This document shows, piece after piece, positions 21,240 through 32,633 of a stretch of 64,000 bases of DNA; the first letter of the stretch is position 1; every line of letters begins with the position of its first letter. The stretch comes from an uncultured bacterium (GTDB lineage: Bacteria > Patescibacteriota > Saccharimonadia > UBA4664). The DNA is taken from assembly GCA_963720265.1 (NCBI GenBank), contig CAVRET010000001.1, positions 69,916 through 133,915 of the forward strand, read 5' to 3'. The notes under the pieces are model-generated. The model saw only the letters and a program-made list of their open reading frames with translations, was not told the origin of the DNA and did not search any database. A program made the position numbers and the translations under genes.

Positions 21240-24035
21240 TTAGCGAAAACTAATTGCTTCCCCCGGCGCAACCGTAGCCGTCTGGTGATGCGTAGCTGGT
21301 TGTGGCGGTTGTTGTACAGCGGTAGGCTGCGTGGCTTGGGCGGGTACAGCGGGTACAGCGGGTACAGCGGGTACAGCGGGTACAGCGGGCGTTGCGGCTG
21401 GTGTGCGGGCCGGGAACGGTCCAGCCGAAGCGGACGGGGGAATGTGCGCCTGTCCCCCGTTTCCTCTCCGTGCTTCTCCCCTGCTTGCGTTTTCGTGGCG
21501 CGAGTGGTCGCCGCCCGCCCTGCTTCCTTGTCGATCTCCTCCACTTCTATTGGCATTCCCCCGCTGCATGGTGGGTGGCAGGCCGGGATTTTTAAGACTA
21601 CCTAAAAATTCTTTGTTCGGGTTTTGTGTGCGTTCGGCGACTGCTTCAGCTTGAGCCTCTTCCTGTGTGGCAGTGCGTGAACGGATGTCGGCTTCAACCG
21701 CGTCGCGATGAGAGGCGTAATGTGCGCGCGACATTTCGATAATCTGAGGCGTGCGATCGTATTCGGGGTCGGGCATACGTAAGGTCGTGGCCGAGAACGG
21801 TGCGGCTTTTTCGCCATTGATAATCATGGAGATGAAAATGTTCTGGTTGTGGAGCTTGGTAAGGTCGGCAGCCTCGAATGTGGGCTCGTAGTATTTGCCC
21901 AGCACAACCGCATCGCCCGGTCCGATACGGAACGTGATCATGGTACCGACGTTACCAAAAACGGCGTCGCGCACGACTTCGGGCATCTGAGCGACGTACT
22001 GGTTGGCGACGGTCAGGTTAAGGCCATACTTGCGGGCCTCGGACAGGATAACGGCGAACGAATCGGTGGCGAAGTTTTGGAACTCATCGACGTACAAGTA
22101 GAAGGGCCGGCGTTGATCGAGTGGCATGTCTGCGCGGGACATGGCGGCGAGCTGGATCTTGGTGACCATAAGGGCGCCCAAAATAGCAGCGTTGTCCTCC
22201 CCCACTTGACCGCGGCTGAGGTTGACGATAAGGATTTTGCCTTGGTCCATGATTTCGCGAATGTTGAAGGCAGATTCTTTTTGGCCGATGATGTTGCGGA
22301 TGAGCGGGTTGGCCACAAAGGCGCCGACCTTGTTCAGTACAGGAGCGACCGCCTCAGAGGCGAACTTTTCGTTCCAGGAGGCAAATTCGGTGACCCAGAA
22401 GCTGCGCACCACCGGGTCTTGAATGTGGGCTATCACGCGCTTACGGAAGGCCTTTTCGTTGAGCAGGCGTGGAATGTCGATCATGGTGGCGCCGGGGAAA
22501 TCGAGCAAGGCGAGCGCGGTGTAGCGCAGGATGTACTCGAGACGCGGGCCCCAGGAGTTTTCGAACATACGCTTGAGCACGCCTACGAGCTCAGACGCGA
22601 TATGGTTTTTAACATCTTCATCAACGACTTCGAGCGGGTTGAAGGCCATGGGAAAGTTGCGATCGGTGGCGTTGAAGTAGACGACATCCTGGAGTCGATG
22701 CTCGGGGATATATTTCATGACATCGGTGGCGAGGTCGCCGTGAGGGTCGACAATGGCGAAGCCCTCGTCGTGATAAATGTCGGATAGTGTGAGGAGTTGG
22801 AGCAAAAACGATTTGCCGGCGCCGGTTTGACCAACGACGTACATGTGGCGGCCACGGTCGGACCGCTTGATGCCAAATTTGAGCTGACGGCCGCGGAAAT
22901 TGGACAACCCAAAAAGGCTCAGGGCGTCGGGCTCGGTGAGGCCCTCGGTCGGCACGTTAGCCGGTGGCTCGGAGGTTTTGGCCGTGGTCCAGGCCATGTT
23001 GGGCGTTTCGACAGATTTGTGCGGTAAGTGATAGAGCGAGGCCAGCTCCTCGATGTTTAAGGTGTAGCCGCGATCAAAGAACAGCCGGGCCTGATAATCT
23101 TGTAAAAATTCCGGAGAATTGTACATTTTGGCATTGGTGAAGCCATTTAAGTTGGTGGTGTTGAACTGCTTAAAGCCACCGACGAGAGCCTGCAGGCGCT
23201 GCCGGGCGGTGGCTTCATCCGGCCCCAGATAGGCGATGCGGATTTTTACTTGGTAGCCGAGTTTGGTCATTTTTTCCTCAACCGCCTTAATAACGGTTTG
23301 TTGGCCGGTTGAAAGCTCTACTTTGGGCGTTTCCTTTTTGGCTGCGTTGGCACTCGGCGGTGTGGCTAAGGCCTTAAACGCATTGGACAGGATATAAATC
23401 GGGATCTGAAGCATGATGTCCATGAAGCGCTTGGTCATATCGGGTGTACCACCGCCCTTAACACCCTCAATGTAGCGCTTGCCGTCGTCTTGCCATGAGT
23501 CGTCAACCGGCCGGGCCAAAATTTGGATCCACGCCTCCTCCCCCATTTGCTCGAGCTTGGCGAGCACGCCGGTAATGCCGGCGAGAGGATCGACCTCGAA
23601 GCTAGCGAAGGTCTTGATGGGTGTTACGGCGTCTTTGGTGAGGCCGAGTTCCGTGCCGTAAATCGTGCGGCCGGCCACATCGACCTGTGAGTAGTCGTCA
23701 GGGTTTTCCTTGATTTGGACTGTGGGATACTGAGCGTAAATTTGGCTCTCAACAAAGTCTTTGAGATGAGTTGGGGTCCAGACGTAAAACTGGATGGCGC
23801 CTTTTCTCGATACGATTTCGAACGAAACGTGCTCCTGGATGGCGCCCTCGCGCTGCAGCTCAGAATGCGGGCGCAAAATACCGTGCAAGGAGGCAAACAT
23901 CTGCTCGGCCGAAAGCTCTTTTTTCTCGTTGTCGCGTGGGACTTCGATGAGTAGTAGCACGTTGTCGACAGTCTCGACCCAGTGCTCACGGCGGCGGTTT
24001 TGCCAGACCAAATAACCAAGCACCGCCACCACCAC
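21240..24035 (-). CDS. Membrane-anchored FtsK/HerA-superfamily P-loop ATPase of the type IV secretion / conjugation type (VirB4/VirD4-TraD-like, DUF87 AAA-like domain) with a disordered Pro/Ala-rich C-terminal tail
   Basis: The protein is 931 aa with an N-terminal TM. It carries a Walker A motif (VVGQTGAGKSF) and a Walker B-like motif (FYLYVDEFQNF). The C-terminus has five PAV repeats encoded by a 9-bp tandem repeat. Confidence 0.55.
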   Translation of the reverse strand: MVVAVLGYLVWQNRRREHWVETVDNVLLLIEVPRDNEKKELSAEQMFASLHGILRPHSELQREGAIQEHVSFEIVSRKGAIQFYVWTPTHLKDFVESQIYAQYPTVQIKENPDDYSQVDVAGRTIYGTELGLTKDAVTPIKTFASFEVDPLAGITGVLAKLEQMGEEAWIQILARPVDDSWQDDGKRYIEGVKGGGTPDMTKRFMDIMLQIPIYILSNAFKALATPPSANAAKKETPKVELSTGQQTVIKAVEEKMTKLGYQVKIRIAYLGPDEATARQRLQALVGGFKQFNTTNLNGFTNAKMYNSPEFLQDYQARLFFDRGYTLNIEELASLYHLPHKSVETPNMAWTTAKTSEPPANVPTEGLTEPDALSLFGLSNFRGRQLKFGIKRSDRGRHMYVVGQTGAGKSFLLQLLTLSDIYHDEGFAIVDPHGDLATDVMKYIPEHRLQDVVYFNATDRNFPMAFNPLEVVDEDVKNHIASELVGVLKRMFENSWGPRLEYILRYTALALLDFPGATMIDIPRLLNEKAFRKRVIAHIQDPVVRSFWVTEFASWNEKFASEAVAPVLNKVGAFVANPLIRNIIGQKESAFNIREIMDQGKILIVNLSRGQVGEDNAAILGALMVTKIQLAAMSRADMPLDQRRPFYLYVDEFQNFATDSFAVILSEARKYGLNLTVANQYVAQMPEVVRDAVFGNVGTMITFRIGPGDAVVLGKYYEPTFEAADLTKLHNQNIFISMIINGEKAAPFSATTLRMPDPEYDRTPQIIEMSRAHYASHRDAVEADIRSRTATQEEAQAEAVAERTQNPNKEFLGSLKNPGLPPTMQRGNANRSGGDRQGSRAGGDHSRHENASRGEARRGNGGQAHIPPSASAGPFPARTPAATPAVPAVPAVPAVPAVPAQATQPTAVQQPPQPATHHQTATVAPGEAISFR
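21342..21386. repeat. Perfect 9-bp tandem repeat (gggtacagc x5) inside the 3' end of the ATPase gene, encoding (PAV)n
   Basis: Seen directly. A partial sixth copy lies upstream at 21314-21322. Confidence 0.9.
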
Positions 24036-26182: not shown

Positions 26183-27202
26183 TTAACTAAAATAAATTCG
26201 CATGATGAGCCTGGCAAGTTTATCAGGGTCATGACGGATGAATGTGCGTGGGATACGCTGCTCGACGGCCGAGAGCTTCGGGATGGTGTCGGAGACGAGA
26301 TCGGCGCCGATAGCCTGGTAGTGGGCTGCTTTTAGGGCTTTTGCGTCATAACCAACAGCATATTCCCCTGCTGTAGCATATTTTTCAAGTAGGGCTCGGC
26401 TCGGCCGGTTGGTGTTGAATATTAGGAAATCGAGTCGGCCGGCGCCGATAAAGCGCTCAATCTCGCGAGCAAAATCATGGGCCTTAAAGCCGTCTGTTTG
26501 GCCGGCCTTGGTAACAAGGTTGGAGACATAGATAACTTTGGCCCGGCTGGCAGCTAGAGTTTCGGTGGCTCCGGGCACAATCAGTGTGGGCGCGAGTGAC
26601 GTATAGAGGTTGCCTGGCGCAATGATCACGAGATCGGCTTCGGTGAGTGCAGTTTTCGCCTCAGGGTTGAGTTTGGCGGGCGGATCGAGCGACAGTTTTG
26701 GCTGAGCTTTGGCGAGCACATATTGTTGGATTTCGTACTGGCCGCGGATGACCCGACCGTCTGATTCGGTTAATACGAGATGTGTATCGCTGAGCGTGAC
26801 CGGTACAACACGGCCGGTAATGGCGAGCATCCGGCTGGCAGCTGTAACCGCTTCGGCGAAGCTGCCGGTGGTTTTTTCAAGCGCGGTGAGAAATAAGTTG
26901 CCAAACGAGTGGCCCTCAAGCGCGCCGGCCTCGAAGCGGTAGTTGAAGAGTCCGCGCATTGAGCTGTCGGCTTCGGATAGCGCGACCAGACACTGGCGGA
27001 CGTCGCCGGGCGGTAAGGCGCCGAGCTCGTCACGTAGTGCGCCGGTGGAGCCGCCGTTATCTGACATGTTTACAATGGCCGTAATGTCCCGGGCGTAGGC
27101 TTTGAGACCTGAAAGTACTGCAAACGAGCCGGTGCCGCCGCCGATGACCACGACTTTGGGGCCGCTATGGGATTGGGTTGTCCTGTCTTGGTTTTTTGAC
27201 AT
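26183..27202 (-). CDS. YvcK/CofD (UPF0052) family protein; gluconeogenesis factor or 2-phospho-L-lactate transferase-like
   Basis: The N-terminal VVVIGGGTGSFAVLSGLK and the MSDNGGSTG motif are typical of the YvcK/CofD family. The protein is 339 aa. Confidence 0.7.
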   Translation of the reverse strand: MSKNQDRTTQSHSGPKVVVIGGGTGSFAVLSGLKAYARDITAIVNMSDNGGSTGALRDELGALPPGDVRQCLVALSEADSSMRGLFNYRFEAGALEGHSFGNLFLTALEKTTGSFAEAVTAASRMLAITGRVVPVTLSDTHLVLTESDGRVIRGQYEIQQYVLAKAQPKLSLDPPAKLNPEAKTALTEADLVIIAPGNLYTSLAPTLIVPGATETLAASRAKVIYVSNLVTKAGQTDGFKAHDFAREIERFIGAGRLDFLIFNTNRPSRALLEKYATAGEYAVGYDAKALKAAHYQAIGADLVSDTIPKLSAVEQRIPRTFIRHDPDKLARLIMRIYFS

Positions 27203-28591
27203 TTAAAATGAGGTGAGCTGCTTGGCTAGGACTTCCCCTAGCTTAGCGATTTTGACACGAGTTTGCTTCATGGTGTCGCGGTGGCGGATGGTGACGGATT
27301 GGTCTTCGAGCGAGTCAAAATCCACAACCACGCACAGCGGCGTGCCGATTTCGTCTTGGCGGCGGTAGCGTTTGCCGATGTTGCCGTTGTCGTCGTAGGC
27401 TACGGCGCCGAATTTTGCCTTGGTGTCGGTAAAAACCTCGCGTGCCAGCTTTACGAGTTCGGGCTTGTTACGCAAGAGCGGTGAGACAGCGATCTTGACC
27501 GGTGCCAGTTCCGGCTTGAGGTGCAAGACCACTCGGGTGTCACTCTCCCCTATTTGCTCTTCTTCATAGGCTGCCGCCAATACGGCCAGCACATGGCGGT
27601 CGAGGCCAAAGGTGGGTTCGACCACATGAGGAATGAATTTTTTGCCGGCCTCGTCGGTGTAGCTAAGGTCGGTGCCGGAGTGCTTGGTATGGTTTGAGAG
27701 GTCGAAGTCGGTTCGGTAGGCCATGCCGGCAATTTCTTTGACGCCAAACGGGAATCTGTACTCAAAGTCGATGGTTTTTTTAGAGTAGTGCGCGCGATCG
27801 GCAGCCGGGACGTTGAGCTCATGGATATCGGATGCTGCGAGGCCAATCCGGTTAAACCAGGCGTGAGCAAGTTTTTGCATGTCGGCGAATGTTTGCTCCC
27901 AGATGTCAGGGTCAATGAAGTACTCAAACTCCATGATGTCGAATTCGCGCACACGGAAGATAAAATCTTTGGGTGTGATTTCGTTACGGAAGTTTTTGCC
28001 GATTTGGGCGAGGCCAAACGGCAGCTTGGGGTGCAGCGAGTCGAGCACGTTTTTGAAGTTTACAAACATGCCTTGGGCGGTTTCGCCGCGCAGATATGCG
28101 ATTGAGGTCGAATCTTCGGTGCTGCCAATGCGGACTGGGAACATAAGGTTGAACTGGCGGGCCGACGTGAGCTCGTTACCGGCCGGGCTTTTGATTTTTA
28201 GCTCTATAATTTTGGCGTCCATCTCCGGGACAGTGAGGCTCGCGGCATCGTCCACGCCGTTGTCTTCGAGCAAATGGTCTGCCCGGTAGCGCACGTGTGT
28301 GACTTTGTCTTCTACGAGCGGGTCGGCAAATCCGGCGCCGGTGTGGCCGCTGGCTTCCCAGACTTTAGCATTCATGAGGATTGCGGTATCGAGGCCAAAC
28401 ATGTCCTCGCGTTCGGTCACGAAGTGCTGCCACCATAGGTTCTTGATGTTGTTTTTGAGTAAAACACCGTATGGACCGTAATCCCAGGTGCCGGCTAGAC
28501 CGCCGTAGATCTCGGAGCCCTGAAAAATAAAACCACGCCGCTTGGCGAGTGATACGAGTGTTTCTAACGTTATTTCAGGGGTTTTGGGCAT
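27203..28591 (-). CDS. glyQS: Glycyl-tRNA synthetase, alpha2 homodimeric type
   Basis: A 462-aa protein with GLAGTWDYGPYGV, class II motifs and an anticodon-binding C-terminus. Confidence 0.9.
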   Translation of the reverse strand: MPKTPEITLETLVSLAKRRGFIFQGSEIYGGLAGTWDYGPYGVLLKNNIKNLWWQHFVTEREDMFGLDTAILMNAKVWEASGHTGAGFADPLVEDKVTHVRYRADHLLEDNGVDDAASLTVPEMDAKIIELKIKSPAGNELTSARQFNLMFPVRIGSTEDSTSIAYLRGETAQGMFVNFKNVLDSLHPKLPFGLAQIGKNFRNEITPKDFIFRVREFDIMEFEYFIDPDIWEQTFADMQKLAHAWFNRIGLAASDIHELNVPAADRAHYSKKTIDFEYRFPFGVKEIAGMAYRTDFDLSNHTKHSGTDLSYTDEAGKKFIPHVVEPTFGLDRHVLAVLAAAYEEEQIGESDTRVVLHLKPELAPVKIAVSPLLRNKPELVKLAREVFTDTKAKFGAVAYDDNGNIGKRYRRQDEIGTPLCVVVDFDSLEDQSVTIRHRDTMKQTRVKIAKLGEVLAKQLTSF

Positions 28592-28600
28592 GATGGTTCC

Positions 28601-28906
28601 TTAAAAATGTAAATTGTCCGGTGAAGTGAGGTCATTATAGTCATCTTCGCCGAGCGAGCCAACCTCAAGCAGGTAGGCCAGGTCGGCGAGGTAGCTGTCG
28701 GTAACTTCTGCTAGGCGCGGTGACTTGCGGTCGGCCAGGATGCGCAGGGTGGCGATGGAATCTCTTATGAATTCCTCGACTTCATCGGCTGTCATCATCT
28801 CGCCCTCGGTGAGCTCGGGGTTTGATACACAGCGGGCCGGCGGCTCAACACCATTGGCTTCAAAATCCGCCAGTCGCCAGGCGAGTTCAGATGCAGGACG
28901 GTTCAT
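28601..28906 (-). CDS. Small acidic protein, paralogue family A (N-terminal SELAWxLAxFxAxGVEPPxxCVxN motif)
   Basis: A 101-aa ORF that ends 9 nt upstream of glyQS. Its N-terminal 30 aa are shared with 29243-29563. Confidence 0.45.
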   Translation of the reverse strand: MNRPASELAWRLADFEANGVEPPARCVSNPELTEGEMMTADEVEEFIRDSIATLRILADRKSPRLAEVTDSYLADLAYLLEVGSLGEDDYNDLTSPDNLHF

Positions 28907-29045
28907 TGGGTTATTTTAGCAGATCATTCCAGGCTAAATTGAGCTGCTACTCCCAGGCGGTCGGCGCGCGGCCGCCTGGGAGTAGCTCGCAATGGGACTG
29001 GTGGTGGCTGGTGAGCCGCCGTGGTGACCGGATGGATGAGCCCGT

Positions 29046-29336
29046 TCAGGCCGCCTGGATGCCCGAAACCAACGTGAGCCGGGCGGTGACAGTGCTGTTG
29101 TCGGCCATGAATCGCCGAACAGCCGACTCCGGAATGCGGATATTGCATCCGATACGGATATTGCATCCGATGCTGTAATGCCCGATCTCGCGCCTTGCGC
29201 ACAGGCGGTGGACCGTCGTGGCGCTGACACGCAAAAACGCGGCTAGCTCGTCAGATGTCCACAGGGGCCCGATCGTGTCAACGGTGTGCTCGTCCATTTC
29301 TCCCGCTGTGAGCAGGTGCTCATTGTCGCCGTCCAT
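29046..29336 (-). CDS. BldC/Xis-type (MerR-superfamily excisionase-fold) HTH protein containing an in-frame 18-bp tandem duplication
   Basis: DNEHLLTAGE...DELAAFLRVSATTVHRLCARREI...IPESAVRRFM resembles BldC. The IGCNIR segment is duplicated. The start is ambiguous and overlaps the neighbouring ORF. Confidence 0.45.
   Translation of the reverse strand: MDGDNEHLLTAGEMDEHTVDTIGPLWTSDELAAFLRVSATTVHRLCARREIGHYSIGCNIRIGCNIRIPESAVRRFMADNSTVTARLTLVSGIQAA
29137..29172. repeat. 18-bp tandem duplication (cggatattgcatccgat a/g) x2 within the HTH gene
   Basis: Seen directly. It encodes IGCNIR-IGCNIR. Confidence 0.85.
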
Positions 29337-29563
29337 GCGTTGCCTCTTCCTGATCTTGGCCGTGCGGCCTGATGTGAAGCGCAGGCCAAGCCGGCCCAGC
29401 CTTCGAGGAGGGTTTCCTCATTTATTACCTTGGCACAGATACGAATCGTGTCAATGCTTGAGTGCCAGATGGTGCTCGTAGAATTTGTCACACAGCCGGT
29501 TGGCGGCTCAACGCCGGCGGCGCGGAAGCCAGCCAGTTTCCAAGCTAATTCCGAGTGTGTCAT
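29243..29563 (-). CDS. Small protein, paralogue family B (shares the SELAWKLAGFRAAGVEPPTGCVTN N-terminus with 28601-28906); diverged C-terminus
   Basis: The start is placed at the internal Met of the tracker ORF 29243-29692. It overlaps the start of 29046-29336 in another frame. Confidence 0.35.
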   Translation of the reverse strand: MTHSELAWKLAGFRAAGVEPPTGCVTNSTSTIWHSSIDTIRICAKVINEETLLEGWAGLACASHQAARPRSGRGNAWTATMSTCSQREKWTSTPLTRSGPCGHLTS

Positions 29564-29630
29564 GCGGGTATTGTAACGAATGATTTGTGGCAGCTGGCGC
29601 GCGGGATGGGTTGCGGCCCATCCCGCGGCG

Positions 29631-30191
29631 TCAACGTTGGGCTCGCTCGGCGGCGAGCTCCCGGATGTAGCTTTCCGAAAAGCGTGGGTCACCTTGCTGA
29701 ACGACCCCAGTTGTTGGAAGACGTATCGCAGTTATCCTCCTCTTGCCCAGGGCAATGAAGACTGCGTACGGTGTGATGCCCAGAATTTCGGCGGCCTCTT
29801 TAAGGGTTAGAAGCCGTTTCAGCCGTCCCTCCTCCTGGCCGATTAGTTGCCGAATGTGGTACTCCGGGAAGCGCCATACCGTTCTTGGCGAGGATGTGGC
29901 CTTAACGGCCACTAGCAGTCCCTCAGACGCGAATCGCCTGACGGTCTGCGGGTTGATCCTCATCAAGTCAGCGACTTCTTCAGCAAACAGGATTCGCTCG
30001 TACATGAGCGAGCATCCTGCCGGTAGTCGCAGTACGGCTCTGATCATGTCTTCAGTTGTGCGGCCCTGTTCGCGGTCGGCGGCGGTCCGGGCCAATAGGC
30101 CGCCGGTTGCGAGCATTTGCCGACCAATCGACTGCCCGACACGAAAGATTAGGCAGACCTTTTGTAGGTCGTGGTTAGGTCGGGGCATCAC
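29631..30191 (-). CDS. Tandem triple BldC-like HTH protein (three Xis/MerR-type HTH_17 repeats)
   Basis: The repeats are VCLIFRVGQSIGRQ..., ILFAEEVADLMRINPQTVRRFASEGLL...WRFPEYHIRQLI and LLTLKEAAEILGITPYAVFIALGKRRITAIRLP...FSESYIRELA. Confidence 0.6.
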   Translation of the reverse strand: MMPRPNHDLQKVCLIFRVGQSIGRQMLATGGLLARTAADREQGRTTEDMIRAVLRLPAGCSLMYERILFAEEVADLMRINPQTVRRFASEGLLVAVKATSSPRTVWRFPEYHIRQLIGQEEGRLKRLLTLKEAAEILGITPYAVFIALGKRRITAIRLPTTGVVQQGDPRFSESYIRELAAERAQR

Positions 30192-30757
30192 TCTCCCCTC
30201 GTGGCTCGGAGGAGCCTCATGGTTCGAAGCAGCGCTTCTACGGAACTGGTGCGGAACAACCTGCTCCGACCGCTCGGCGTTCGGATTGACTCAAGCTTGC
30301 CGGTTCTACCCCACAGGTTGACGGTTTCCTTGCTACGGCCCAGTCGGTGGGACGTTTCACTGGCGGTCATGAAAGGATCGTCGAAGAGATCGCCATACGG
30401 TTGTCCGATGTATACTCGCACGAGCCGTTCATTGGCTAGATGGTCTCCGCCCGGTGTTCGGACAGCGCCGAACAGTCCCTCGTCGCACCATCTAGCGGCA
30501 GTGGTGATGTCTACCCTGAATAGCTGGTGGAGCTCGTTGGTAGTGAGCCAAGCCAGCTCCATCTCCTCGTTTTCGCGCAGCCTGAGGTGTCGGCGGAGGA
30601 CGCTTTCGCGGAACAGGCGGCCTCGACCACTGACGAATTCCGACTCGATGAGCCCTGCGGTGATCCACCGGTGAACGGTGGTGTTCGTGTCCACCCGGAA
30701 TAGCCGTGCGACTTCCCTTATGCGGTAGTAGGTTACGCCCCCAATGCGTGTGGGCAT
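30188..30757 (-). CDS. Tandem triple BldC-like HTH protein
   Basis: The repeats are YYRIREVARLFRVDTNTTVHRWITAGLI..., WLTTNELHQLFRVDITTAARWCDEGLFGAVRTPGGDH... and FMTASETSHRLGRSKETVNLWGRTGKLESIRTPSGRSRLFRTSSVEALL. The start is at an internal Met with a GGAAGGGA RBS; the tracker ORF extends to 30829. Confidence 0.6.
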   Translation of the reverse strand: MPTRIGGVTYYRIREVARLFRVDTNTTVHRWITAGLIESEFVSGRGRLFRESVLRRHLRLRENEEMELAWLTTNELHQLFRVDITTAARWCDEGLFGAVRTPGGDHLANERLVRVYIGQPYGDLFDDPFMTASETSHRLGRSKETVNLWGRTGKLESIRTPSGRSRLFRTSSVEALLRTMRLLRATRGE

Positions 30758-30840
30758 GGCGCTCGTCCCTTCCAGTAGGTACCGCTTATACCACGATGAT
30801 AGATTGCAAATTTTATAGATTGATGTCAATACATGTGTAT
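30758..30840 (-). promoter_or_regulatory. AT-rich internal promoter-like region inside the island (TTGACA / TTGCAA and TATAAA / TATAAG elements)
   Basis: The local GC drops sharply. On the - strand the sequence tattgacatcaatctataaaatttgcaatctatcatcgtggtataagc precedes the RBS of 30188-30757. Confidence 0.35.
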
Positions 30841-30933
30841 GGCGTTAGTTGGCAAGCCAGGGGCGACGCGGGTGCGCCGTCCCTGGCTTCCGGCATCGGG
30901 TTGGTGGCCAGCGGCTCCGTATGGCCGGCCCGG

Positions 30934-31182
30934 TTACGGCCGATGACCGTTTGGACCTTGAGCATCCGGGCCTGGCCCATCGCCTCGGAGCAGGGCGCGA
31001 ATTTCACCTTCGCGGAACCGGCGGTGACCGCCGGGCGTCCGTATTGAGGTGATGCGGCCGGAAGCCGCCCAGCGCGTGACGGTCTTAGGGTCAACCCTGA
31101 ACAGCGCGGCTACTTCGCCGGGTGTAAGCAGGTGCTCGTCGTTTCCAGTGAGGATGCCCCCGCCTGTCGTGACTTCAGACAT
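30934..31182 (-). CDS. bldC: BldC homologue (small MerR/Xis-family developmental-regulator-like HTH protein)
   Basis: The 82-aa ORF is nearly collinear with Streptomyces BldC: LLTPGEVAALFRVDPKTVTRWAASGRITSIRTPGGHRRFREGEIRALL. Confidence 0.7.
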   Translation of the reverse strand: MSEVTTGGGILTGNDEHLLTPGEVAALFRVDPKTVTRWAASGRITSIRTPGGHRRFREGEIRALLRGDGPGPDAQGPNGHRP

Positions 31183-31293
31183 CGTTCACCTCTCTTTCGG
31201 CCAACTGGCCTTGCGGGAACTGTGGCCAGATATGGCCCTGATGAGTGGTTACCTCTCTTACTGTGTCACAGTTGATGAACGCGTCAAGGCTCG

Positions 31294-31848
31294 TTACGAG
31301 GGCTGTGACCTTTGGATGGCCTCGACCTCAGAGGTGCGGAATCGGCGCGTGCCCTGGCCTCCGGTTGGCGTGTGGATCACCGTGAGCTTCCTCTTGGCGA
31401 CGAGCCTGTTAACCCCGTTCTTGTTGATACCTAGGCGGTCTATGACCGTCCGAATGCTCACCAGGGGGTCATCAGCGAGGGGGCCCGTGGGATTGCCCAT
31501 GACCTGCCGGATTGTGGATTCGCGGAATCTGAGCTTGCCGCACCTTACGGCAGGGGTGCGGACGTGCGGCAAGCCGCTCTCTCGTACCCATCGGCCGATT
31601 GTGCGGCCGTTAATGTCGAGCAGCACCGTGATTTCATTGGGTTTGAGGAGTCCGTCTGCGAAGAGATCACCTCCTAGCTGGTCCAGGTAGGTTCTGATCT
31701 CGGCTTCCGGGATGCCTTTCCCTCCCTCTGGAGTCTCTGCGGTGGTGAAGAGGCTGTCATCGATCCAGGTGGGGACGGTATTTGGCGAGACGCGAAAAAG
31801 TTTGGCCACGTCATCTATGGGCATTACCGTCTGGGTTGGGGTTGTCAA
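31294..31848 (-). CDS. Tandem triple BldC-like HTH protein
   Basis: The repeats are PIDDVAKLFRVSPNTVPTWI..., KPNEITVLLDINGRTIGRWVRESGLPHVRTPAVRCGKLRFRESTIRQVM and SIRTVIDRLGINKNGVNRLVAKRKLTVIHTPTGGQGTRRFRTSEVEAIQ. Confidence 0.6.
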   Translation of the reverse strand: MTTPTQTVMPIDDVAKLFRVSPNTVPTWIDDSLFTTAETPEGGKGIPEAEIRTYLDQLGGDLFADGLLKPNEITVLLDINGRTIGRWVRESGLPHVRTPAVRCGKLRFRESTIRQVMGNPTGPLADDPLVSIRTVIDRLGINKNGVNRLVAKRKLTVIHTPTGGQGTRRFRTSEVEAIQRSQPS

Positions 31849-31919: not shown

Positions 31920-32633
31920 TCAACTTTTGAGCATAGCTTGGCCAAGATGGTGTTCATAGAATCCATCACATAGCGCCAGGGTAGATTCAGCCAGGCTTGG
32001 CGCGCCGCTAATGCGGGCGATTGTGGCGTAGGGATAGTCGCAGAGCAGGCGCCAGAGCTTGATGGCTTCGGTGCTAATGGGCTGCCCAGCGGCCGTAGCG
32101 TCGGCGGCGCACACGAGCCCGCCGCGAGCGGCGTCAAAGACGTAGGCGGTTGGTGCGTTGATGCCGCAGATGAGACAGCGGCCGAGTTCCGGCCGGTAGC
32201 CGATGAGGTTCAGGAGGCGGAGTTTAAACCAGAGTTCGGTGAGCTCACCGCCGGCGCCGTTGTTTACGACTCCCAATGCTTCGGCGAGATGGGCAAATAA
32301 TTCCGGCTGGGGCGTCTGCTCCGGTGCGGTGCGGTCAATGAGCCGGGCAAACAAATAGGCTAGATTCACCTGCTCGTAGGAACTCGTAAGCTCATGCGGA
32401 TACCATCGTAGGCGCGCTGACGTAATAACATCGAGGTTGCGGCCGGTGGCGAGTGAAAGTTGAGTATTGGCAAACAGCTCAAGGTGGCCGCCGAGGCGGC
32501 TCTTAATTTTGCGCACGCCTTTAGCCACGGCACTGAGCTTGCCGTGCTCGGGTGTGAGCAGGCGGATAATGCGGTCAGCCTCGCCAAAATTAGTGCGGCC
32601 AATAACGATGCCTTCGGTTTGATAAGTAGGCAT
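31920..32633 (-). CDS. recO: DNA repair protein RecO
   Basis: The N-terminal OB fold is EGIVIGRTNFGEADRIIRLLTPEHGKLSAVAKGVRKIKSRL. A C-terminal CxxC zinc motif (CLICG) is present. The protein is 237 aa. Confidence 0.85.
   Translation of the reverse strand: MPTYQTEGIVIGRTNFGEADRIIRLLTPEHGKLSAVAKGVRKIKSRLGGHLELFANTQLSLATGRNLDVITSARLRWYPHELTSSYEQVNLAYLFARLIDRTAPEQTPQPELFAHLAEALGVVNNGAGGELTELWFKLRLLNLIGYRPELGRCLICGINAPTAYVFDAARGGLVCAADATAAGQPISTEAIKLWRLLCDYPYATIARISGAPSLAESTLALCDGFYEHHLGQAMLKS

Follow-up and report, generated by a model that had tools for sequence, protein, structure and literature searches.

The 64,000-nucleotide stretch of contig CAVRET010000001.1 considered here (the window) comes from an uncultured bacterium of the Patescibacteriota and carries, on its minus strand between recO (31920-32633) and glyS (27203-28591), a compact cluster of genes for proteins related to the regulator BldC. 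Three of these genes, designated T1, T2 and T3, encode chains made of three BldC-like units, and they accompany a gene for a single-unit BldC ortholog. In the direction of transcription the order is recO, T3, bldC, T2, T1, a fragment resembling the start of p101, the single-unit gene S, p101 and glyS. The cluster holds 11 BldC-like units within 2.8 kb, and a hidden Markov model of the unit finds none elsewhere in the window.

The three open reading frames (ORFs) were first pointed out in an earlier note on this DNA, and they are indeed present on the minus strand at the positions it gave. T3 (31294-31848) encodes 184 aa when read from the TTG at 31848, with units placed by unit alignment at ~31669-31842, 31483-31665 and 31297-31479. 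The public annotation has a T3 product of 176 aa starting at the ATG at 31824 (P0003), while the TTG start retains the N-terminal strand of unit 1. The bldC gene (30934-31182, 82 aa, a single unit) follows, and then T2 (30188-30757, 189 aa), with units at ~30569-30742, 30392-30565 and 30212-30388. For T1 (29631-30188/30191, 185 or 186 aa) the likeliest start is the ATG at 30188, which overlaps the T2 stop codon as TGATG, in preference to the GTG at 30191; unit 1 of T1 (30015-30191) is degenerate, and units 2 (29826-30008) and 3 (29637-29828) are clear.

All three proteins score above the gathering threshold (27 bits) of the Pfam family HTH_17 (PF12728), with three matching stretches in T2 (70.2 bits, E 1.7e-19) and in T3 (59.0 bits, E 5.3e-16) and two in T1 (40.3 bits, E 3.7e-10). 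Against the NCBIfam model HTH_BldC (NF033787, curated cutoff 77 bits), T2 reaches 89.4 bits over three stretches, a score that exceeds the cutoff as a sum over three units; T3 (65.9 bits, three stretches) and T1 (29.9 bits, one stretch) lie below it. In a phmmer search with the window's own single-unit BldC, T2 (E 1e-7 to 5e-9) and T3 (E 7e-9, 2e-9 and 6.5e-5) each give three significant, non-overlapping unit matches, and the T1 units give E values of 0.16, 3e-7 and 0.002, the first being very weak. The earlier note had counted three units in every protein, a count that is clear for T2 and T3 by HTH_17, HTH_BldC and phmmer, but that in T1 comes down to two clear units and a degenerate first one. 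The nine units and BldC align in a single register, in keeping with the proposed relation to BldC and HTH_17, although the residues put forward as a shared signature vary from unit to unit.

Within the chains the units recur with a tightly clustered period of 59-62 aa (median 59 aa) and are joined in frame by linkers of 8-14 residues, and both the domain matches and the alignment bear out the idea of a covalent array with short in-frame linkers. The proteins are basic (isoelectric points 9.8-10.6). At 184-189 aa they are too long for the single winged helix-turn-helix (wHTH) of BldC (~68 aa), a size that the ORF at 30934-31182 does fit. Matches to MerR-family Pfam models in T1-T3 are limited to N-terminal HTH models, and the C-terminal coiled-coil and effector domain of classical MerR proteins are absent from the three proteins, the wHTH units filling their whole length.

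The structure of T2 was predicted with AlphaFold2 from a 20-sequence alignment of three-unit proteins. The model contains three (β)-α1-α2-β1-β2-α3 units and has a mean predicted local distance difference test (pLDDT) score of 96.9 and a predicted template modelling (pTM) score of 0.87, every linker being confident. Because a pTM of 0.87 for a three-domain chain points to a single, confidently placed inter-unit arrangement, T2 is predicted to be one rigid three-unit body, which fits the fixed register that had been suggested for these proteins. In T1 (pLDDT 84, pTM 0.78) the model of unit 1 has α1, α2 and α3, and its β wing is replaced by a low-confidence short helix. The best Foldseek matches in the Protein Data Bank (PDB) are the BldC chains 6ama/6amk (TM 0.82-0.88, root-mean-square deviation 0.9-1.4 Å over ~50 residues), followed by RacA, Pukovnik Xis and the HTH domains of CarH/MerR, so that on the predicted model the units have an α1-α2-β1-β2-α3 wHTH fold superposable on BldC. 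No solved PDB chain found by Foldseek covers more than one unit of the T2 model (TMq ≤0.29), and a fold search of BFVD returned only two-unit phage proteins with poor global superposition.

The ORF at 30934-31182 is a bona fide BldC ortholog, with 102.5 bits to NF033787, E 2.5e-22 to the BldC crystal chain PDB 6ama and 72% core identity to Streptomyces venezuelae BldC. Gene callers missed this gene in two other assemblies, namely L041, a second assembly of the same organism, where bldC lies at 2573-2821 and a 74-aa ORF was called on the opposite strand instead, and L046, a relative described below, where bldC lies at ~925-1146 and nothing was called.

Structural and mutational work on BldC gives a residue-level standard for the units of T1-T3. 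BldC forms a head-to-tail oligomer only on DNA, through contacts of F21, W31, L43, G44, E16 and R22; Arg30 makes a specific base contact, His46 reads the minor groove (H46E abolishes binding), and Arg30, His46, Gly44 and Glu16 are required by mutation, G44E being disruptive (PMC5859096). In the nine window units the hydrophobic interface positions are mostly retained, position 21 being hydrophobic (F/L/M) in all nine and position 43 being Pro in six, like the window's own BldC. Glu16 and Arg48 are each kept in six units and Trp31 in five. The full set of mutation-defined contact and interface residues (Arg30, His46, Gly44, Glu16) is not found in the units, and T1-T3 are therefore diverged BldC-like arrays rather than linked BldCs, alike in fold and core and diverged at the DNA-reading positions.

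The loss of interface residues follows a pattern along the chain. First units retain Phe21, Arg22 and Trp31 and have variable wings; the last unit of each paralog, and of the T2 ortholog P0002, has Gly at position 22 in place of Arg22, and Trp31 is lost as well from the last units of T1 and T3. If the ends of the chains are free, terminal and middle units should differ at the interface; across 398 units of tandem arrays the interface residues of first, middle and last units show no clear difference, and Trp31 is kept in 77-87% of units in 2-7-unit arrays generally. The Arg22 and Trp31 losses in last units are thus local to the window paralogs.

The three paralogs are collinear over their full length, T2 and T3 being 35% identical across residues 9-179 (E 2e-22), and share the linker motif G.P.G.L.DDP between units 2 and 3. 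Units that occupy equivalent positions in different paralogs are ~28-33% alike, compared with ~22% for units inside one protein, which indicates that a three-unit gene was duplicated, and not that three single-unit genes were fused by error.

The history of the locus can be followed in relatives. The window's glycyl-tRNA synthetase (GlyRS) is at most 62% identical to those of genome representatives, all of them Patescibacteria, the best ones being labelled Candidatus Saccharibacteria. A BldC-like unit is present in none of 39 other Patescibacteria glyS loci, and the locus is therefore clade-specific. Two closer lineages, both from soil metagenomes, share the whole neighbourhood (GAF/PAS kinase, response regulator, recO, p101, glyS, nucleotidyl transferase, sigma factor and TrwB-like ATPase), one represented in three soil samples (L042-44, GlyRS 88% identical) and the other by L046 (GlyRS 78% identical), with neighbourhood proteins 62-94% identical across the window, L042-44 and L046. 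At the position of the cluster, L042-44 have one four-unit gene (P0006) and no bldC at the locus, and L046 has the uncalled bldC (89% core identity) and then one four-unit gene (P0008). The arrangement of recO, a multi-unit gene, p101 and glyS is common to all three, which makes P0006 and P0008 positional orthologs at the recO-glyS locus; in sequence they are 25-31% identical to each other and to T1-T3. Judged by these identities, the multi-unit proteins diverge far faster than the neighbouring genes and BldC. In the window lineage the locus has undergone expansion to three three-unit genes and a decayed single-unit gene, S.

S (29046-29336, 96 aa, minus strand) contains one HTH_17 unit (41 bits). 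Its N-terminus is a 13-aa BldC-like remnant (DNEHLLTAGE), S residues 3-15 matching BldC residues 13-25 by phmmer, and its wing contains an in-frame 18-nt tandem duplication (29134-29169, 94% identical) that produces IGCNIR-IGCNIR. Downstream, p101 (28601-28906, minus strand, 101 aa) encodes a protein with no known domain and no Pfam or NCBIfam match, which is kept at 99-101 aa and 77% identity across the lineages, always between the multi-unit gene and glyS (L042 8822-9121; L046 2236-2541). Between T1 and S, at ~29480-29563 on the minus strand, lies a diverged short copy of the first ~28 codons of p101 (SELAWKLAGFRAAGVEPPTGCVTN), whose DNA matches p101 weakly. In front of it stands CGTTACAAT (29570-29578), and this sequence fits the p101 leader of L042/L046 better than the window's real leader does. 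The fragment and its leader suggest that S arrived through a duplication or insertion long ago.

Several further features of the neighbourhood were recorded. Beside glyS, a CofD-family gene (26183-27202, minus strand) is shared by the window and L046 and is missing from that position in L042-44. The TrwB-like ATPase ORF (21240-24035, minus strand, 931 aa) contains near its C-terminus a perfect 9-nt tandem repeat, GCGGGTACA, in 5.6 copies (21340-21389). Rfam gave no match between 28 and 33 kb.

Two intergenic blocks resemble promoter or operator regions. Upstream of T2, an AT-rich block (30785-30829, minus strand) reads TTGACAT...CAATCTAT-N8-CAATCTAT...TGGTATAAG, the last being an extended -10, and is kept in the ortholog locus L040 despite coding DNA that is only 65% identical. 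Upstream of bldC, the element at 31260-31287 (minus strand) consists of TTGACGCG and then the palindrome ACTGTGaCACAGT, and the same block occurs in L046. The palindrome itself (ACTGTG-a-CACAGT, 31260-31272, minus strand) is perfect, lies just downstream of the TTGACG hexamer, is kept in L046 as ATTGTGaCACAGT, and might serve a dimeric regulator as its operator. GC-rich hairpins without a U-tract, formed by inverted repeats, follow bldC (30854-30889), T1 (29600-29627) and S (28946-28986). They are probable transcript ends, and suggest three separate ones: for bldC alone, for a translationally coupled T2-T1 pair and for S.

The tandem architecture is widespread. An exhaustive HMMER profile search of 1.84 billion representatives gave 2473 matches at E ≤1e-3, and 135 of the best 150 of these contain 2-7 tandem units (69 with two, 35 with three, 19 with four, 9 with five, 2 with six and 1 with seven), counts that are not frequencies, as the query favours multi-unit proteins. 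Among them are proteins with three (P0009, HTH_BldC 228.6 bits) or four (P0007, HTH_BldC 247.3 bits, and P0012) near-canonical BldC units and one with seven units (P0024); a two-unit protein (P0154) is found in the NCBI metagenome-assembled genome GCA_964570005.1, a 272-aa version (P0160) lies among gas-vesicle genes, and actinophages also have two-unit proteins. Tandem arrays carry the database names 'excisionase family DNA binding protein', 'integrase-resolvase', 'BldC family' or 'hypothetical'. Other searches recovered little: JGI metagenome scans with T2 and with an alignment of T2 and P0002 found no relatives, a four-sequence alignment held no block conserved enough for searching, a word-indexed protein search gave, apart from the window's own proteins, just P0002 and one weak match, and in plasmids tblastn with a canonical three-unit BldC picked up essentially single-unit BldC genes from Actinomycetota.

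Full-text literature searches, which did not extend to the original bldC paper (Hunt et al. 2005), found no paper on tandem BldC/HTH_17 arrays and none on BldC in Saccharibacteria, and the papers on BldC, RdfS and Gp36 treat single-unit proteins only (PMC5859096, PMC11963761, PMC12266134). The suggestion that the architecture is undescribed holds for the literature searched, but not for public sequence data, where tandem arrays are frequent but uncharacterised; the claim is narrowed accordingly. What is new here is a locus of bldC and a tandem array conserved in a Patescibacteria clade, its local expansion, its very fast divergence and the rigid three-unit model.

Among the known systems closest to T1-T3, BldC of Streptomyces venezuelae and Streptomyces coelicolor (6AMA, 6AMK) has the same MerR-like winged-helix fold, without coiled-coil or effector domain; the T2 units superpose on it at ~1 Å, most of the hydrophobic core and of the interface positions of the F21/P-L43 type is kept, and a true bldC ortholog lies inside the window cluster. 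However, BldC is a 68-aa monomer that assembles head to tail only on DNA, whereas T1-T3 have three units in one polypeptide, and the window units evolve far faster. The excisionase-type wHTH proteins (lambda and Pukovnik Xis, RdfS of an integrative and conjugative element, and Gp36 of mycobacteriophage D29) belong to the same Pfam family, HTH_17, and small wHTH units of this type align cooperatively on DNA direct repeats (PMC11963761, PMC12266134). They are single-unit proteins whose oligomers are non-covalent and whose roles are linked to recombination or to the control of phage genes, whereas T1-T3 are covalent and have no integrase or mobile-element context. The public tandem HTH_17/BldC arrays have the same covalent architecture with a unit period of ~55-62 aa; they differ in unit number (2-7), and P0009 and P0007 retain nearly all BldC contact residues while the window proteins are much more diverged. 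Several HTH units per chain also occur in c-Myb R1R2R3 and in MarA/Rob (two HTHs), which as monomers read adjacent subsites of an asymmetric site; these belong to unrelated fold families and serve as an analogy only.

T1-T3 are probably single-chain, pre-assembled arrays of the BldC/Xis type, with distinct composite specificities for each paralog. We infer DNA binding, head-to-tail geometry, site length and a regulatory role for T1-T3 from the fold, the charge, the behaviour of the family and the predicted rigid arrangement. For head-to-tail assembly the indications are indirect, namely the pTM of 0.87 for T2 and the conserved period of the units. Each protein would bind DNA as a ready-made array, the single-chain equivalent of the cooperative filaments of BldC, Xis and RdfS, and would cover about three helical-repeat-spaced subsites (~27-33 bp) in a fixed register and direction, without a need for concentration-dependent cooperativity. 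The site read would be composite and directional, and not three identical AATTnnnnC repeats, because the three units carry different recognition-helix and wing residues; judged from these residues, a composite asymmetric site is likelier than one sequence repeated three times. Each paralog would have its own targets, for which the conserved AT-rich blocks upstream of the paralogs themselves are plausible first candidates; the conserved upstream blocks proposed as targets are 30785-30829 before T2 and 31260-31287 before bldC. In evolutionary terms, T1-T3 are fast-evolving paralogs of a multi-unit gene that a clade of soil Patescibacteria carries beside bldC, with recO on one side and p101-glyS on the other.

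Several observations weigh against this interpretation. The likeness to BldC proposed in the earlier note holds for fold and core, but of the residues that define BldC function His46 is kept in none of the nine units, Gly44 in two and Arg30 in five (as is Trp31), and unit 1 of T3 has at position 44 the Glu that the disruptive G44E mutation introduces into BldC (PMC5859096). A net acidic charge is seen in two units, namely unit 1 of T3 (-5) and unit 2 of T2 (-3). Repeat finders detected no triple direct repeat with a 9-11 bp period in the local intergenic DNA, in which AATTnnnnC sites occur only singly and the sole direct repeat is the pair of CAATCTAT copies upstream of T2, spaced by 16 nt. 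Finally, the locus is partly decaying, as seen in T1 unit 1, S, the p101 fragment and an indel variant of T3.

A different role, plausible but in our view unlikely, is that the tandem proteins are not independent regulators and act on the neighbouring BldC, nucleating, capping or phasing its filaments through BldC-like head and tail surfaces, with end units that lack interface residues serving as chain terminators. Such a role would suit the dependence of BldC oligomerisation on DNA and on the six interface residues listed above, the adjacency of bldC and a multi-unit gene in the window and L046, and the distribution of those residues in the window paralogs, whose first units keep Phe21, Arg22 and Trp31 and whose last units are without Arg22 (T1-T3 and P0002) or Trp31 (T1 and T3). 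It is at odds with L042-44, where a four-unit gene is found with no bldC at the locus, and with the wider tandem set, where interface residues are independent of unit position. Fast-diverging tandem proteins beside a nearly invariant BldC would also be unexpected for tight partners.

It is far less probable that the long ORFs are artefacts or decaying pseudogenes, that is, single-unit genes fused by assembly or frameshift error, or non-functional relics. One observation in favour of this explanation comes from L041 (Logan), which is 99.985% identical to the window: an A-run in T3 unit 1 (31717-31719, minus strand) is AAA in the window and AAAA in L041, a single 1-nt gap that is the sole difference between the two over 6570 nt. 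The extra A puts unit 1 in another frame than units 2-3 and splits the ORF, which is called as 155 aa. Past this site the window frame encodes the expected α3 helix of unit 1 (PEAEIRTYL), so the window version of T3 is the coherent one; the A3/A4 difference may reflect either an error of assembly or a polymorphism. The degenerate unit 1 of T1, the remnants S and the p101 fragment, and the very fast divergence are likewise compatible with relics. On the other hand, the linkers of all three genes are in frame and contain no stop, AlphaFold2 models the linkers with high confidence, and only the annotated frames give positive codon-usage log-odds, the long antisense ORFs being negative. The same three- or four-unit architecture recurs in independent assemblies and lineages, including P0002 (58% identical to T2, three units, on an independent contig where a T1-like ORF follows), P0006 (in six contigs), P0008 and a copy of T1 at 99% identity in another sample (P0152). 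T1, T2 and T3 are thus real, expressed-type genes. The frameshift origin that the earlier note had named as fatal to its proposal is contradicted by collinearity, codon usage, in-frame linkers and AlphaFold2 confidence, and was rejected for the architecture as a whole, with decay visible in parts.

Least credible of all is a role as excisionase-type recombination directionality factors or as regulators of an integrated mobile element, to which the membership of HTH_17, an excisionase family, the scores of T2 (51.3 bits) and T3 (32.4 bits) with the 'excisionase family' model TIGR01764, the JGI names of relatives ('excisionase family DNA binding protein' or 'integrase-resolvase'), the resemblance of the units to Pukovnik Xis, and the duplications and gene remnants at the locus might point. 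Context and synteny led to its rejection: next to the cluster there are no genes for an integrase or recombinase, of a phage or of a conjugation module, and what flanks it is recO, glyS, cofD, a sigma factor and a two-component system; moreover, the chromosomal position is the same in three lineages with housekeeping neighbours 75-94% identical, codon usage is native, HTH_BldC outscores the excisionase model, and searches for tRNAs and att-like repeats gave none.

Among small winged-helix proteins, BldC, Xis and RdfS are the textbook examples of cooperative head-to-tail filament formation on DNA. BldC is known as a developmental regulator of actinomycetes, and the reduced genomes of Patescibacteria carry few regulators; a conserved bldC with an expanding tandem-BldC locus is therefore unexpected in an ultra-small Patescibacteria genome. 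Seen as pre-assembled arrays, T1-T3 and their relatives would offer, as natural covalent trimers and tetramers, a ready test of the filament model, with fixed stoichiometry and register, no concentration dependence and a defined footprint, and would show how unit number and changes in the residues of single units re-programme site recognition. Such arrays are numerous in public data and bear no annotation beyond 'excisionase family' or 'BldC family', which means that a whole class of bacterial DNA-binding architecture is uncharacterised. As a long shot, single-chain BldC arrays may be a distinct and rapidly diversifying group of 'pre-assembled filament' DNA readers, in which unit number (2-7) would set footprint length and the residues of each unit a composite directional code, and in Saccharibacteria-like episymbionts, where they occur alongside a highly conserved bldC, they may either seed filaments of BldC or cap them; still more speculatively, their target could be the BldC regulon in an actinobacterial host.

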